Assembly (NCBI GenBank): GCA_963663765.2
Contig: CAXXUA010000004.1
Span: 224,001 to 288,000, forward strand
DNA: 64,000 nucleotides
Source: Candidatus Poribacteria bacterium
GTDB taxonomy: Bacteria > Poribacteria > WGA-4E > WGA-3G
Direction of reading: 5' to 3'
A model generated the notes under the pieces. That model saw nothing but the letters and a program-made list of their open reading frames with translations. It made no database searches and had not been told where the DNA came from. Shown in pieces: positions 2,766-62,385 of this stretch (position 1 is the first letter of the stretch; each line of letters opens with the position of its first letter). The position numbers and the translations under genes were made by a program.

Positions 2766-3070
2766 TATATAACGACTTGTGCCAGTTAACCCATTGTTTT
2801 CAAAGTTTTTACATATATTAGGTTTATAATGCACACATATCGTCCCTACCAAATCAACGCCAAATGCGCGTATGGCATTTGTCGGGACTAAAGAGGATGT
2901 ACTATGACGTTTTCTATAAACATATCGTCCCTACCAAATCAACGCCAAATGCGCGTATGGCATTTGTCGGGACTGAAGATCGTTTCAAACTATGAAAGAC
3001 ACCTGCGAAACGTCATACTTATGTGAAACAATGATTAACATATAGTTATTTAGCACAACTCGTTTATATA
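2766..3070. mobile_element. MITE-like element (ends TATAACGACTTGTGC / GCACAACTCGTTTATA) carrying CGTCCCTACGGGAC palindromes, with two 34-bp micro-inserts
   Basis: Near-identical to 16477-16711 except for inserts at 2850-2883 and 2935-2968. Confidence 0.75.
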
Positions 3071-3236
3071 GTGAAATATACAATTAAGTTTACACTTGTT
3101 CTGTAGGCGGGGAATGCCAATAGGCATTCATACAGTTGATTTCGATCTCCGAATCGCGACTGAACGCCTTGATAGTCGGGAATCGGAGTTCCCTCCTACA
3201 CCTGAATGTGTAAAAATAATTCTAAAATCTACTATA
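3068..3236. mobile_element. MITE-like element with TATAGT...ACTATA ends enclosing a GTAG-type REP doublet
   Basis: Inverted ends; a similar-ended element lies at 36116-36239. Confidence 0.5.
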
Positions 3237-3286: not shown

Positions 3287-3439
3287 CAGGACTTACGCAG
3301 TTTTCATGATTTGATGAAGAATTATGACGAAAATGGTGTAATTTTCAGCATTTTTTCGGTTTCCAGCGCCAAATCAAGAAATCAACGGTATGAATGTCAT
3401 TTAGGCATTCCCCGCCTACCGTTGGGTGCGTAAGTCCTC
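3287..3439. mobile_element. MITE family A (TIR CAGGACTTACGCA), 5-bp TSD AGGGT, inserted in the TIR of a family B element
   Basis: TIRs and direct repeat read from sequence; 10 complete copies in window. Confidence 0.85.
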
Positions 3440-12437: not shown

Positions 12438-12495
12438 GGTTTTATTTGTATGTGGGTGTGTAAAGTTTTTGTTACTTGTCTGAACAAGGATTTTC

Positions 12496-12660
12496 AAATC
12501 AAGAAATCAAGAAATCAAGAAATCAACGGTATGAATGCCAAAAGGCATTCCCCGGGTATGAATGCTAAAAAGCATTCCCTGGGTTTGAACGCCAAATTAA
12601 GACTAATTTATTAATCAGGTAATCATATATTTATCCAACGTTATGCATTCCCCGCCTACC
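12496..12660. repeat. Expanded micro-insert: GAAATCAA tandem plus tandem GGTATGAATGC...GCATTCCC hairpins
   Basis: Read directly; same module as in family A MITEs. Confidence 0.7.
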
Positions 12661-12807: not shown

Positions 12808-12973
12808 CAGGACTTACGCAGTTTACTTGATTTAATCAAGAATTGTGATGAAAATGATGTAATTATCAACATTTTTTGGGTTTCCAGCGCGCTTACAAAG
12901 CACCAAATCAAGAAATCAACGGTATGAATGCCGTTTAGGCATTCACCGCCTACCGTTTTTTGCGTAAGTCCTG
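12808..12973. mobile_element. MITE family A, TSD ATTAG, with micro-insert
   Basis: TIRs and 5-bp direct repeat. Confidence 0.85.
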
Positions 12974-15885: not shown

Positions 15886-16078
15886 CAGGACTTACGCAGT
15901 TTTCATGATCCAATCAAGAATTAAGACGAAAACGATGTAATTTTCAGCATTTTTTTTGGTTCCGGCGCCAAATCAACGGTATGAATGCCGTTTGGCATTC
16001 CCCGCCTACAAAGCACCAAATCAACGGTATGATTGCCGTTTAGGCATTCCCCGCCTACCGTTGGGTGCGTAAGTCCTG
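15886..16078. mobile_element. MITE family A with two micro-inserts
   Basis: TIRs; inserts near 15969-16003 and 16017-16052. Confidence 0.85.
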
Positions 16079-16476: not shown

Positions 16477-16711
16477 TATATAACGACTTGTGCCAGTTAA
16501 CTAATTGTTTTCAAAGTTTTTACATATATTAGGTTTATAATGCACACATATCGTCCCTACGGGACTAAAGAGGATGTACGTATGACGTTTTCTATAAACA
16601 TATCGTCCCTACGGGACTGAAGATCGTTCAAACTGTGAAGGACACCTGCAAAACGTCATGCTTCTGTGAAACAATGATTAACATATAGTTATTTAGCACA
16701 ACTCGTATATA
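16477..16711. mobile_element. MITE-like element, insert-free allele of 2766-3070
   Basis: Direct comparison of the two copies. Confidence 0.75.
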
Positions 16712-18631: not shown

Positions 18632-18753
18632 CAGGACTTACGCAGTTTTCATGATCCAATCAAGAATTAAGACGAAAACGATGTAATTTTCAGCATTTTT
18701 TCGGTTTCCGGCGCGCTTACAAAGCACGCCTACCGTTGGGTGCGTAAGTCCTG
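18632..18753. mobile_element. MITE family A, basic 122-bp copy, TSD TAAAG
   Basis: TIRs and direct repeat. Confidence 0.9.
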
Positions 18754-26846: not shown

Positions 26847-26968
26847 CAGGATTTACGCAGTTTTCTTGATTTAATCATGAATTATGATGAAAATGATGGA
26901 ATTATCAGCATTTTTTCAGATTTCCAGCGCGCTTACAAAGCACGCCTACCGTTTTTGCGTAAGTCCTG
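26847..26968. mobile_element. MITE family A, TSD TTATA
   Basis: TIRs and direct repeat. Confidence 0.85.
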
Positions 26969-48263: not shown

Positions 48264-48458
48264 CAGGACTTACGCAGTTTTCTTAATTTGATCAAGAAAT
48301 TTGATGAAAATGATGTAATTATGAGCATTTTTATGTGTTTCCAGCGCGCTTACAAAGCACCAAATCAAGAAATCAACGGTATGAATGCCATTAAGGCATT
48401 CCCCGGGTATGAATGCCATTTAGGCATTCCCCGCCTACCGTTCGGTGCGTAAGTCCTG
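48264..48458. mobile_element. MITE family A, TSD TTTGT, with a doubled hairpin micro-insert
   Basis: TIRs and direct repeat; insert at 48361-48432. Confidence 0.85.
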
Positions 48459-53284: not shown

Positions 53285-54230
53285 GGGTGTGTAAAGTTTT
53301 TGCACCATAGGCGTCAATTTAAGGCAGCTAATCCTCGCACACATCGTAGGGGCGAGGTCTCCTCGCACACATCGTAGGGGCGAGGTCTCCTCGCACACAT
53401 CGTAGGGGCGAGGTCTCCCTCGCACACATCGTAGGGGCGAGGTCTCCTCGCCCGTGTAAACGAACTTCCAATCGGGCGGGGAAACCCCGCCCCTACAATA
53501 AAGGTGCCATCTGAAGGAATTAGAACATCCAAGGTTTCACTTACACAAGAATAGAGAACTTCTTACTTAAACAGGACTTACGCAGTTTTCACGATCCAAT
53601 CAAGAATTAAGACGAAAACGATGTAATTTACAGCATTTTTTAGGGTTCCGGCGCGCTTACAAAGCACGCCTACCGTTGGGTGCGTAAGTCCTGTTAAATT
53701 GACGCCTATGGGTGTGTAAAGTTTTTGCACAAACATCCCACTCTCCATTGTAGGTCAGGTCTCTGTGCACCGCGGCAACTGATTAAATGAGAGATTGCGG
53801 ACACAGAGTCCTAATGAGTTTTGACGTTCAAGTTGTGTATTCGTAGGGGTGTGGTTTCCACACATGAATCTACGCAAACTCAAAAACCAAACGGGTTGGG
53901 GAACCCAACCCCTACGAATTCAACTACCAATTTTGATTGTCAAACTTCATTAGGTGTCAATATAAAGAAATATTGTTAATATTAACCATATTCTTCAGTC
54001 CTGTAGGGACGATATGTTTATAGAAATACATATCCCCACGTCTTTTTAGTCCCGACAAATGCCATACGCGCATTTGGCGTTGATTTGGTAGAGACGATAT
54101 GTTTATCCTTCTATGTCGTTCCTACGGAACTAAAGAGAGGGGATGTGATAACGTCTTCTATAAACATTGCGTCCCTACGGGACTAAAGAGAACAAAAGTT
54201 AGTACCTCTGTGCAAAAACTTTACACACCC
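53285..54230. mobile_element. Nested elements: family B containing family C (53307-53709, ~20-bp duplication of the B end) containing family A (53572-53693, TSD TTAAA)
   Basis: All TIRs and duplications readable in sequence. Confidence 0.85.
53333..53452 (+). repeat. Four tandem ~28-bp units CCTCGCACACATCGTAGGGGCGAGGTCT
   Basis: Read directly. Confidence 0.85.
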
Positions 54231-57503: not shown

Positions 57504-57668
57504 CAGGACTTACGTACCGAACGGTAGGCGTGCTTTGTAGGCGGGGAATGCCAAAAGGCATTCATACCGTTGATTTCTTGATTTGGCGCTGGAAACCGAA
57601 AAAATGCTGAAAATTACATCATTTTCGTCGTAATTCTTGATTAAAACATGAAAACTGCGTAAGTCCTG
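57504..57668. mobile_element. MITE family A, reverse orientation, with micro-insert
   Basis: TIRs present; flanks do not form a clean TSD. Confidence 0.8.
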
Positions 57669-59191: not shown

Positions 59192-59313
59192 CAGGACTTA
59201 CGCAGTTTTCATGATTTGATGAAGAATTATGACGAAAATGGTGTAATTTTCAGCATTTTTTCGGTTTCCGGCGCGCTTACAAAGCACGCCTACCGTTGGG
59301 TGCGTAAGTCCTG
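59192..59313. mobile_element. MITE family A, basic copy, TSD TAAAT
   Basis: TIRs and direct repeat. Confidence 0.9.
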
Positions 59314-59524: not shown

Positions 59525-60322
59525 ATGAGTACTGAAGTACAATTATCAAAATGGCAGAAATTCAGAAATACAGTTGTCTGGGAATACACCCAAGTTATTG
59601 TCGTTGCTCTTATTCTTGTTTTCGGATTCATTCGTCCCTTTGTAGTTGAAGCATTTAAGATACCTTCCGGATCTATGAAGGATACACTCCTAATCGGTGA
59701 CCGTATACTTGTCTGTAAATTCATATACGGATTCAAAATACCAGGAACTGATATAAAAATATTTGATTTTCATAAACCTGCACGCGGTGATGTTTTTGTG
59801 TTCATTCCCCCGCATGAAACAAACCGAAACTTCATCAAACGTATTGTTGCTATTGAAGGAGATACAGTACATACAGAAGACAATATTCTTTATGTAAATG
59901 GAATAGCAGTTAAAGATAGTGAATATGCAAAGTATACTGCTAACCATTTAGTCAGACGGAATAATTTTCCACCGTTCCGAAAAATGGAAAAATATATGCG
60001 AGGTAATGATTTCTACAGTGATTACACATTGACCGAAACTCAATTCAAACGTAAATTTCCTGAGGGCAAACCTTTTGTTGTACCAAAAGGCTATGTTTTT
60101 GCAATGGGAGATAATAGAGACCAAAGCAGCGATAGTCGCACTTGGGGACCTGTCCCTGTTGATAGCATCAAAGGACAAGCATTTATGGTATATTGGTCAT
60201 TCCGAGATTTAACAGACGAAAAATTTCATAATGCAAAAATATGGGAATTCTGGAAAATGATTGGTAATATAAGGTTCAATCGTATCGGAAAACTGATCCA
60301 TACATACCCCGGAATCGAATAA
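59525..60322 (+). CDS. lepB: Signal peptidase I
   Basis: IPSGSM..TL.IGD, FIKRIV, MGDNRDQSSDSR.WG. Confidence 0.95.
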   Translation: MSTEVQLSKWQKFRNTVVWEYTQVIVVALILVFGFIRPFVVEAFKIPSGSMKDTLLIGDRILVCKFIYGFKIPGTDIKIFDFHKPARGDVFVFIPPHETNRNFIKRIVAIEGDTVHTEDNILYVNGIAVKDSEYAKYTANHLVRRNNFPPFRKMEKYMRGNDFYSDYTLTETQFKRKFPEGKPFVVPKGYVFAMGDNRDQSSDSRTWGPVPVDSIKGQAFMVYWSFRDLTDEKFHNAKIWEFWKMIGNIRFNRIGKLIHTYPGIE

Positions 60323-62256
60323 TGTTTCAAGATAGACGAAATCTTATCATCGGTACTGCTGGACATGTTGATCACGGAAAAACTGCTCTGGTTGGTACTT
60401 TGACAGGTATTGAGACTGATAGACTCAAAGAGGAACGCGAACGCGGTCTGTCCATTGAACTGGGTTTTGCCTATTTTGACCTACCTGACAACTCACGTGC
60501 AGGTATAGTCGATGTGCCTGGACACGAAAAATTCATTCGCAACATGCTTTCTGGTGCTTATGGAATGGACATAGTCCTTTTCGTTGTGGATGCAAAAGAG
60601 GGGGTACAGGAACAGACACTTGAACACTTAGCAATTTTAGATTTACTGAGTATCTCAAACGGCATTCTCGTCATGACAAAGTCTGATTTAGCAACACCAG
60701 ACGAATTGCAGGAAGCAACCGAAATGACACAGGAAATACTTGTCGGTACTTCACTTGAGGGAATTCCTTCAGTTAGTGTTTCATCTATCACAGGGGACGG
60801 TATTGAAAAATTAAAACGGATGATAGTTGAACAAGTAAACATTGCCACAGATAAACAAATAATTGATGGGATACCTCGTCTATATGTTGATAGGGTTTTC
60901 TCAATACAAGGTTTTGGCGCGGTTGTAACTGGTACACTCATTGGAGGAACAGTCAATAAAGACCAGAGAATGGTTATTTTACCACAAGGAGACATCGTTC
61001 GCGTACGTGGTATCCAAGTACATAATGAACCTGCAAATGTCGCACAAGCTGGACAAAGAACAGCCCTAAACCTATCAGGTATTACTGCACAAAAAATACA
61101 ACGCGGGGATGTCCTATGTCCTATAGAGTATTTGAAAGTAACAGAGAACATTGATGTTTCGTTAAACGTGTTGTCCTCATTTCCAAGAATGCTTGAACAT
61201 TGGGGACGTTTCAGACTATATCTTGGTACACGAGAACTATTCTGCAGATTAATTCTATTGATTGATGAAGCAATACTACCCGGTGACGCCGTTCAAGTTC
61301 AACTGCGGTTGGAACACCCGATACTCACTTTCAGAGGTGATAGGATCATTATACGTGATTTTTCTGCTCAACACACTGTCGGGGGCGGTCAGGTAATTAA
61401 TCCTTTTGCTCCGAAACACAAACGTTTCACTCAAGATACAATAAACACTTTAGCAAAATGGGAAGAAGCAGACAACACACAAGTAGTAAATGCCGTCTTG
61501 GAAAATAGTCAGACTCTGTGTGTTGAAGAATCATTGCTTTTTTACTATATACCTTATTCTCAATCCGAAATAAATACCATTTTGAATTCATTAGAATCTG
61601 AAGAAAAAATCATCCGATGGGATAAAACTGGAAGAAATCCACTTGTTTCTGATGCTGCACGAACAAACCGTGTAATAGAAAAATTTCTAATCACATTGTC
61701 TAAATTTCATGAAACACATCCATTGCAAGTAGGTCAAAACGCTTCACAAATCTGCAGAGAACTCAAACTTGATGAGGTAGCTTTTGAGAAAATCACAAAT
61801 CAACTTATTCGGTCAAAGAAAATAGCTAAACATGGAAACCTGCTTAGGTTAGAATCTCATGAGATCCAGTTTTCTGAAGAGGAGTCATCTGCTAAAGAAA
61901 CACTTGAACAACTTTATTTAAATGCTGACATCAATACACCCGCACTAAAAGAATTGAACGCATTATTACCTGATTTTACACCACAACAGATTGAATCAAC
62001 TTTTTATGCTTTGTTAAATCTCGGTATGTTTATAAAAGCAGCGGATAATTTCTATCTTCACAAGGATGTTTATGAAAAGAAAAAAGAACTATTAACTAAT
62101 TTTCTACGAAAAAACGGTACGATCACAGTTGCAGAATTTCGTGAATTGGCACAGACATCTCGGAAATATGCTGTACCATTCCTTGAGTATTGTGATACAC
62201 AAAATGTTACAGTCCGTGATGGAAATGTACGGAGATTGTCAACAAAATATAGTTAA
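60322..62256 (+). CDS. selB: Selenocysteine-specific elongation factor
   Basis: GTAGHVDHGKT, DVPGHEKF, C-terminal SRKYAVPFLEY.D; adjacent tRNA-Sec. Confidence 0.96.
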   Translation: MFQDRRNLIIGTAGHVDHGKTALVGTLTGIETDRLKEERERGLSIELGFAYFDLPDNSRAGIVDVPGHEKFIRNMLSGAYGMDIVLFVVDAKEGVQEQTLEHLAILDLLSISNGILVMTKSDLATPDELQEATEMTQEILVGTSLEGIPSVSVSSITGDGIEKLKRMIVEQVNIATDKQIIDGIPRLYVDRVFSIQGFGAVVTGTLIGGTVNKDQRMVILPQGDIVRVRGIQVHNEPANVAQAGQRTALNLSGITAQKIQRGDVLCPIEYLKVTENIDVSLNVLSSFPRMLEHWGRFRLYLGTRELFCRLILLIDEAILPGDAVQVQLRLEHPILTFRGDRIIIRDFSAQHTVGGGQVINPFAPKHKRFTQDTINTLAKWEEADNTQVVNAVLENSQTLCVEESLLFYYIPYSQSEINTILNSLESEEKIIRWDKTGRNPLVSDAARTNRVIEKFLITLSKFHETHPLQVGQNASQICRELKLDEVAFEKITNQLIRSKKIAKHGNLLRLESHEIQFSEEESSAKETLEQLYLNADINTPALKELNALLPDFTPQQIESTFYALLNLGMFIKAADNFYLHKDVYEKKKELLTNFLRKNGTITVAEFRELAQTSRKYAVPFLEYCDTQNVTVRDGNVRRLSTKYS

Positions 62257-62291: not shown

Positions 62292-62385
62292 GGGGGAGGA
62301 TAGGGTCTGGTGTCCCTACCGGTCTTCAAAACCGGCTTGTCCATGCAAGTGGATAGGTGGGTTCGATTCCCACCCTCTCCCGCCA
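62292..62385 (+). tRNA. selC: tRNA-Sec (anticodon UCA)
   Basis: 8-bp acceptor stem, CCGGT-CTTCAAA-ACCGG anticodon arm, long variable arm, GTTCGATTCC, 3' GCCA. Confidence 0.95.

Follow-up and report, generated by a model that had tools for sequence, protein, structure and literature searches.

The window analysed here, by which we mean the whole stretch of 64,000 nucleotides (G000:C4:224001-288000), belongs to a poribacterial assembly (G000) of 6.35 Mb with 41% G+C. Among its genes are those for TonB-dependent receptors, and a tRNA-Sec gene (62292-62381, forward strand; 78.5 bits) lies directly behind selB (60322-62256, forward strand), indicating that this poribacterium has a selenocysteine decoding system. 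The window also holds short repeats, several of which are interrupted by still shorter modules that we call A and B. Three exact matches to module A were found in the window, against 0 expected from 100 shuffles, and each of them splits CGTC(C/T)CTAC^GGGAC (the caret marks the junction), as a sequence-only reading of this DNA had proposed for all three positions. Two of them, at 2850-2883 and 2935-2968 on the forward strand, lie in the two REP1 hairpin units of one host element, MITE-1 (about 2781-3075), and the third, at 54054-54087 on the reverse strand, interrupts a variant form of REP1 (CGTCTCTAC^GGGAC) that is located upstream of lepA. The same reading had called the paralogous MITE-1 at 16477-16711 (235 bp, forward strand) empty, and we found both of its REP1 hairpins uninterrupted. 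There, CGTCCCTAC and GGGAC are joined directly at 16552-16565 and 16604-16617, and the empty sites that correspond to the first and the second module fall between 16560 and 16561 and between 16612 and 16613, respectively.

Module B is present at all seven positions at which it had been reported in the window and at one that the earlier list lacked. The copy at 3109-3143 (reverse strand, formerly given as 3108), with the leader GAAATCAAC and the loop TATT, sits in a REP3-type host and is followed by a GCCTAC of its own. The next one, at 3370-3413 (forward strand, two leader units), is located in the host element MITE-2, from which the host segment GCTTACAAAGCAC is absent in this copy; it looks like a deletion between two B copies. 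MITE-2 offers two sites within its repeat REP2, and site 2 (AAGCAC^GCCTAC) is occupied at 12904-12947 and at 48361-48404 (both forward strand, two leader units each), the latter with a leaderless extra B hairpin unit in tandem behind it (48405-48432, forward strand). Site 1 is occupied at 57543-57585 (reverse strand, two leader units) in a copy whose site 2 is empty. One MITE-2 copy is doubly filled, with a module at 15969-16003 in site 1 (GGCGC^GC..TAC), where the downstream flank reads GCCTAC, not GCTTAC, and another at 16017-16052 in site 2 (both forward strand). The copy missing from the earlier list, at 12495-12553 (forward strand), has four leader units in a REP5-type host (CAGGATTTT^GGG...) and is followed in tandem by a leaderless extra B-type hairpin unit (12554-12580, forward strand). 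The four MITE-2 copies that had been described as lacking the module, at 18632-18753 (forward strand), 26847-26968, 53572-53693 and 59192-59313, are unfilled at both possible sites.

The modules follow a common plan, in which a leader of 9 nt (NAAATCAA one to four times, then C) is directly followed by one hairpin; they are bounded by CAAATCAA... at one side and by ...CCCC or ...TTTGTC at the other. For the whole assembly, a catalogue made by BLAST and regular expressions comprises 82 simple copies of A and 408 of B. Module A (34 nt, CAAATCAACGCCAAATGCGCGTATGGCATTTGTC) consists of the leader CAAATCAAC, found in 81 of the 82 copies, and a 9-7-9 hairpin (9-bp stem, 7-nt loop, 9-bp stem) with the loop GCGTATG in 55 copies. 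Module B (35-60 nt) has 1-4 leader units of 8 nt, a C, and then a bulged hairpin with the arms GGTATGAATGCC-loop-GGCATTCCCC, whose loop occurs in some five variants (ATTTA in 134 copies, TTTT in 99, ATTAA in 55 and the GCGTATG type in 40). The size of the modules is thus 34 to 60 nt and not the 34-45 bp given earlier. The B variant with the GCGTATG loop (40 genomic copies) looks like a chimera of a B stem and an A loop. A third type, module D (34 nt), has the leader of A, the same 9-7-9 plan and nearly the same loop, but its stem differs from that of A in a compensated way (GTCAGAAGC...GCTTCTGTC); it is found at AAAATC^GGGGTTGAAAACCCC. Among 19 distinct A-type modules taken from other MAGs, both sides of the stem change in five of the nine pairs and 92.4% of the cells pair, a level that none of 500 shuffles reached, and a C.T mismatch frequently replaces one of the pairs close to the foot (10 of the 19). 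The stems thus covary while the leader and the loop are fixed, and the shape of the hairpin is kept. As DNA, the modules are predicted to fold into modest to good hairpins (-5.4 kcal/mol for A; -8.3 kcal/mol, z = -4.1, for canonical B). They are intergenic: long open frames (stop-free, at least 200 codons), which cover 75.5% of the assembly, hold one of the 82 A copies and 12 of the 408 B copies. We also considered two known site types for this layout and rejected both, an integron attC because, by inspection, the leader resembles half an R box but the other end has no pairing partner, and a tyrosine-recombinase core site for the 9-7-9 palindrome because the arms covary and the spacer is fixed.

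Module B is itself found interrupted, truncated or in tandem arrays at several places in the assembly. A leaderless A-like hairpin (GGCGAATGC or GAGCATGC, then GCGTATG) lies reversed inside the B stem in at least 38 copies (e.g., C15:51449 and C6:26067, on the reverse strand of B). Its junction does not follow the C^G pattern, and this hairpin may represent an additional type of module that obeys other rules. Two further elements are seen at C2:212034, C5:1056026, C10:15830, C11:176980 and C13:6187: an AT-rich larger element (ATGAAGATTAAT...) that interrupts the B loop at several places, and a GGGTGTGTAAAG... element that truncates B in four copies. Tandem arrays at C6:322382-323444 and C6:327186-327572 have a unit of about 80 bp made of REP2 and the B variant with the A-type GCGTATG loop.

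In the assembly, the hosts of the modules are REP1, two sites of REP2, REP3 to REP6, the loop of module A and the end of module B. REP1 (GTCCC-TAC-GGGAC, with GTAG on the opposite strand) is part of MITE-1, an element of about 220 bp that contains a minisatellite of 1-12 tandem 52-bp units, each with a REP1 hairpin; about 65-90 copies exist in the genome and all fill states are seen. One MITE-1 copy has a DDE transposase gene (IS4-like, PF01609) inserted in it (C6:358862-360178). REP2 (GGCGC^GCTTACAAAGCAC^GCCTAC, with the two sites marked) is carried by the 122-bp MITE-2, which has CAGGACTTACGCA ends and about 331 copies in G000. The site for B in the loop of A is ATGCGC^GTATGG and the site at the end of B is CCCC^GGGTATG. 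A REP1 site can be empty, can hold A, can hold A with B in its loop, or can hold these plus an extra leaderless B hairpin, which means that nesting reaches up to three levels. The orientation relative to the host repeat is fixed, with none of the 82 A copies reversed.

To find empty counterparts, 30 nt of each flank were joined and sought in G000, requiring a gapless match with at least 12 nt on each side of the junction. The sequence-only reading had suggested such a catalogue of filled and empty sites, and in G000 it pairs 80 of the 82 simple A copies and 259 of the 408 simple B copies with gapless empty paralogues; most of the others have further units behind them. At least eight contexts in G000 occur in filled and empty form with nothing in common but C^G, and further contexts were found in other MAGs; the same B loop variants recur across most contexts. 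A C precedes the module in 80 of the 82 A copies and in 330 of the 408 B copies, and a G follows it in 79 and 363 of them, respectively, so that the proposed entry at C^G steps stands as a strong preference but not as a rule. There is no fixed 4-5-nt target, as the tetranucleotides upstream of the junctions include CTAC, GCGC, GCAC, CCCC, CCGG, TTTT and GATC. Essentially no duplication had been reported, and every inspected junction is ambiguous by 0 or 1 nt, the single nucleotide arising because flank and module both end in C. The placement of B just before GCCTAC, by contrast, was borne out for two host types only, and in two contexts GCCTAC appears to arrive with the module. As judged by comparing sequences, these pairs show that the modules entered many unrelated sites with identical boundaries, nearly all of them at C^G in or beside the hairpin of another repeat.

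To see how often this happened within one host family, we tabulated the 211 MITE-2 copies in which both REP2 sites could be scored. All four combinations occur (site 1/site 2: 127 empty/empty, 56 empty/filled, 17 filled/empty and 11 filled/filled). On a host tree built from the left arm, which is only 66 nt long, the 28 filled copies at site 1 require 24 changes of state (24.2 with shuffled labels) and the 67 at site 2 require 49 (49.6 with shuffled labels), and 11 of 20 groups of copies with identical host arms contain mixed fill states. The earlier reading had named passive spread of one ancestral insertion with the host as the finding that would speak against it; on this 66-nt tree filled copies are dispersed no differently from randomly assigned labels, which refutes a single ancestral insertion. 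Its other reservation, that the empty alleles are derived deletions, is unlikely, and with a flanking repeat of 0-1 nt the loss would also need a precise, element-specific cut. Within a single host-repeat family, then, entry or loss has evidently occurred many separate times, as far as the genomic copies record it.

Passive multiplication also occurs, through amplification of the host MITEs and REPs, duplication of 52-bp units and conversion-like copying that drags a flanking base along. Only three of the 490 modules have two unique 40-nt flanks and 487 lie in repeated flanks, implying that most of the spread could be recombinational. Paired units within one MITE-1 usually agree in fill state and in B loop variant. 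At REP2 site 1, empty copies carry GCTTACAA (GCTTAC) in 183 of 191 cases and GCCTACAA in one of 191, whereas 24 of 28 filled copies carry GCCTACAA (GCCTAC); the module thus brings a flanking base from site 2, the signature of a templated, gene-conversion-like process. In the REP3 context, which looks like one event (17 copies; of the 14 simple ones tabulated, 13 have the loop TATT), the host tag GCTCCTAC is replaced by GCCTAC in the filled copies. Together, the flanking base at REP2 site 1 and the replaced tag in REP3 favour templated copying over clean cut-and-paste. At orthologous unique sites, no polymorphism between filled and empty forms could be shown because the relatives are too diverged and short-read contigs break at repeats. 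For the B copy with unique flanks at C5:500155, we sought an orthologous empty site in 39 congeners, in which the locus is not conserved and the module alone matches. Six public sequencing runs, all stored as contigs, contain the locus of the window; the four compared break at every repeat cluster, e.g., at 2130, 12506 and 15915, with joints from other genomic copies, and thus say nothing on filled against empty forms.

We next asked how the modules are distributed among genomes. G000 holds 77 A copies (up to three mismatches) and 468 B cores, the most B cores among the 151 genomes searched. Module A (up to three mismatches) is present in 22 of 24 other genomes of the genus and in none of 16 from other genera of the order. 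The B core is present in all 37 genomes of the genus (g1), in 50 of 57 of its sister genus (g9), in none of five from three other genera of the family and in one of 51 from other families, and a congener may hold as few as 2 or as many as 468 copies of it. In species-representative genomes, a scan with a generic A-type pattern gave at least 93 loci, and among the matches listed all were from Candidatus Poribacteria or from MAGs named 'uncultured bacterium'. A collection of plasmids gave no match to the composite element, and viral contigs gave no exact B core. Host and module can occur apart: one congener (G008) has 23 REP1 and no A, and another (G024) has 10 A and a single REP1. Module B is 100% identical across 40-45 nt in many species whose genes are 70-88% identical to those of G000, implying that something must select or regenerate the exact sequence.

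For an enzyme that could move the modules, we examined the Y1 genes of G000, of which four are IS200-like and two RAYT-like. One RAYT-like gene (C4:621598-622074) lies between long REP3 (GTAGGAGGGAACTCCGATTCCCGAC) arrays in a REPtron-like arrangement; the other (C10:24997-25277), at a contig end and apparently in two frames, lies behind a REP2 array with the tag variant GCAG, and this array includes a single REP2::B copy. Neither the leader nor the hairpin of a module was found within 1.5 kb of the four IS200-like genes or the C4 RAYT-like gene. The sequence-only reading had proposed to look for a Y1/HUH gene bounded by the leader and the hairpin; no coding element so bounded is present in G000, where no CAAATCAAC leader is followed by an open reading frame and any CAAATCAAC without a module hairpin lies either in a gene by chance or in an interrupted module. 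PF01797 (Y1_Tnp) had no match in three genomes, G024 (one contig), G001 (four contigs) and G010, which contain 63, 109 and 63 B copies (up to three mismatches), respectively; the G010 copies include 28 exact ones and 30 with a single mismatch. Across 111 genomes of the family the presence of RAYT does not track B, since the RAYT query is unmatched in eleven B-bearing congeners and, conversely, the searched genomes of one genus (g12) contain RAYT and lack B. The kinship with IS200/IS605 elements and their short derivatives that had been proposed earlier is therefore not supported: there is one hairpin, no fixed target and no element with these ends, and congeners without Y1 genes carry 63-109 B copies. 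Next to the clusters in which modules are densest, the genes encode ordinary enzymes, WD40 proteins and a single DDE transposase, none of them suspicious. The raw counts on the two replication strands are 50:19 for A and 177:109 for B, and with tandem copies merged they are 36:27 for filled REP1 against 111:101 for empty hosts, a control against which no clear strand bias is left; the GC skew is weak.

We conclude, with a probability of about 60%, that A, B and D form one poribacterial family of tiny insertion modules, non-coding and non-autonomous, that enter other repeats. Several other accounts have to be weighed against this one. The modules may be immobile now, either because one ancient insertion per context rode along with its host or because the filled form is ancestral and was lost precisely. 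The REP3 context with its uniform loops and the clearly duplicated filled tandem units are what such a passive history predicts, and no present-day polymorphism could be shown with public short-read contigs or with 39 congeners; but the random placement of filled copies on the MITE-2 tree, the identical arms with mixed states, the four REP2 site combinations and the several loop variants per context argue against it, as does the occurrence of REP1 without A in one congener, and deletion by slippage needs flanking direct repeats where only 0-1 nt is present. We consider this account quite improbable. It is unlikely, though less so, that no transposition is involved at all and that the modules, after a few founding events of illegitimate recombination, spread among related hairpin repeats by gene conversion or by template switching guided by microhomology, at stalled DNA that forms hairpins. 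Such a route is consistent with the flanking base transferred at REP2 site 1 and the tag replaced in REP3, with the homogenised neighbouring units, with the repeated flanks of nearly all modules and with their persistence in Y1-free genomes. It does not readily explain why the boundaries are identical in at least eight contexts of G000, and in more elsewhere, with a flank homology of only C/G, or why three module types have one leader in common, and a letter-perfect sequence across species needs selection or a recognising factor.

In the third alternative, a Y1 HUH enzyme encoded in the genome (a RAYT or an IS200 TnpA) would move the modules as single-stranded DNA hairpins, and these would serve it as minimal IS200/IS605-like or REP-like substrates. 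The absence of target duplication, the terminal hairpin and the fixed orientation relative to host hairpins fit this idea, the hosts are GTAG-tagged REPs, and the two RAYT-like genes stand in a REPtron arrangement, one of them behind the REP2 array with its REP2::B copy. TnpA-REP is known to act on single-stranded REPs, which it cuts and rejoins next to their hairpin at CT or CA (PMC8266576). The module junctions, unlike these, follow C; a fixed 4-5-nt target, a second hairpin and an IS with these ends are lacking; and the abundance of B in genomes without PF01797, together with the failure of RAYT to track B, weighs further against a Y1 enzyme. A HUH/RAYT-type enzyme is still the best known candidate for a mover, but from the genomic comparison it now appears doubtful, and we regard this alternative as improbable. 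The Y1-free congeners make another enzyme, or a template-switch route in replication or repair, at least as likely. Finally, the modules might be cis-acting elements selected by the cell, such as protein-binding hairpins or hairpins at RNA ends, with dispersal as a by-product. They are intergenic and letter-perfect across species with 70-88% gene identity, and the leader unit AAATCAA(G/C) contains an ATCAA core that presumably resembles the IHF consensus; one class of E. coli BIMEs carries an IHF site. A copy number that varies between 2 and 468 among congeners is hard to reconcile with this function, and the placement in selfish repeats, not at fixed positions relative to genes, fits selfish spread, so that we hold a cis-acting role to be very unlikely.

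Returning to a family of insertion modules as the preferred reading, we infer that a trans-acting activity moves them. This activity would cut and join single-stranded DNA and would recognise the leader, the shape of the hairpin and the loop, which would account for the covarying stems, the fixed leader and loop and the letter-identity across species. In a more specific form, the modules would be substrates of a Y1-independent single-strand insertion activity of one poribacterial family, which would recognise the leader (9 nt) and the loop and place the module at C^G of extruded hairpins; we put this forward tentatively, as possible but on balance doubtful. As the sequence-only reading had supposed, the data describe a very small unit that parasitises other repeats, supported by precise filled and empty pairs in at least eight contexts, by nesting and by the scattered filled state.

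To our knowledge, hardly any mobile DNA shorter than about 50 nt has been documented, the small dispersed repeats (SDRs) of Nostoc being the main case, and the 34-60-nt modules described here are among the smallest mobile-looking DNA units known. The family offers clean and numerous copies whose boundaries are exact; its three module types have one leader in common, and its nesting is up to three levels deep. As a single genome contains several hosts in both empty and filled form, and relatives with and without Y1 genes are available, the question of what moves such units is testable and could be addressed by comparative genomics and simple oligonucleotide assays. A Y1-independent activity, if real, would define a new class of minimal mobile DNA and give a handle on the unexplained mini-repeats of cyanobacteria. 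On the practical side, the modules cause breaks when genomes of sponge symbionts are assembled from short reads, and they make intergenic regions look more diverse than they are.

Among known systems, IS200/IS605 HUH transposases insert without duplication using hairpins, and their short non-autonomous derivatives are called PATEs. The modules have in common with both the lack of target duplication, the hairpin end and the strand-specific orientation, but IS200/IS605 elements have a 4-5-nt target, left and right hairpins and a parent IS, all three of which the modules lack, and the modules are several times smaller. A classical MITE has terminal inverted repeats and a target-site duplication, and the modules have neither. 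REPs, BIMEs and REPINs are likewise short, intergenic, high-copy hairpins that form mosaics with other motifs and are conserved over long times within a lineage. However, a REP or REPIN carries a GTAG/CGTC tag at its 5' foot, whereas the modules have no tag of their own, the 5' flank of the hairpin being CAAATCAAC and GTAG belonging to the host REPs; REPINs are inverted pairs, whereas the modules are single hairpins that sit inside other REPs. In REP/RAYT systems the cognate gene is flanked by the repeats, whereas the REPtrons here are flanked by REP2 and REP3, with one REP2::B copy, and the modules persist in Y1-free genomes. The junctions of TnpA-REP are CT or CA, and those of the modules, as inferred from the junctions alone, follow C and precede G. 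A literature search on Poribacteria with REP, MITE, REPIN or RAYT elements found no paper describing these repeats.

The closest likeness is to the SDRs. SDR4, SDR5 and SDR6 were reportedly described by Elhai and colleagues in 2008 (Genome Res 18:1484) as small dispersed repeats of Nostoc punctiforme and its relatives. SDRs are 21-27 nt long, and nesting is a defining feature of them; we know of no enzyme that mobilises them and of no mechanism proposed since 2008. Among the papers that cite Elhai 2008 (PMC5861425, PMC4390886, PMC3116915, PMC3733652), one describes a precise insertion of SDR5 within HIP1, after its third base and before its fourth, and the restriction of SDRs to one lineage, the Nostocaceae, is stated in PMC5861425. 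As far as the likeness can be judged from these descriptions, both are very small, non-coding, lineage-restricted units that interrupt contiguous repeats at a precise point, although the SDRs belong to the Nostocaceae and are 21-27 nt long, and the modules belong to Poribacteria and measure 34-60 nt. The modules likewise nest, with B in the loop of A and A in REP1. Unlike SDRs, they have an iterated 8-nt leader followed by a hairpin, and they target C^G steps of REP hairpins instead of HIP1, of which there is no enrichment here (58 copies). A cyanobacterial origin of the window, which the resemblance to SDRs might suggest, was rejected on this account and because of its tRNA-Sec, selB and TonB receptor genes. 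In summary, the modules represent a new family within a kind of repeat that is already known but mechanistically unexplained, distinguished by their leader architecture, their depth of nesting and their independence of Y1 genes.
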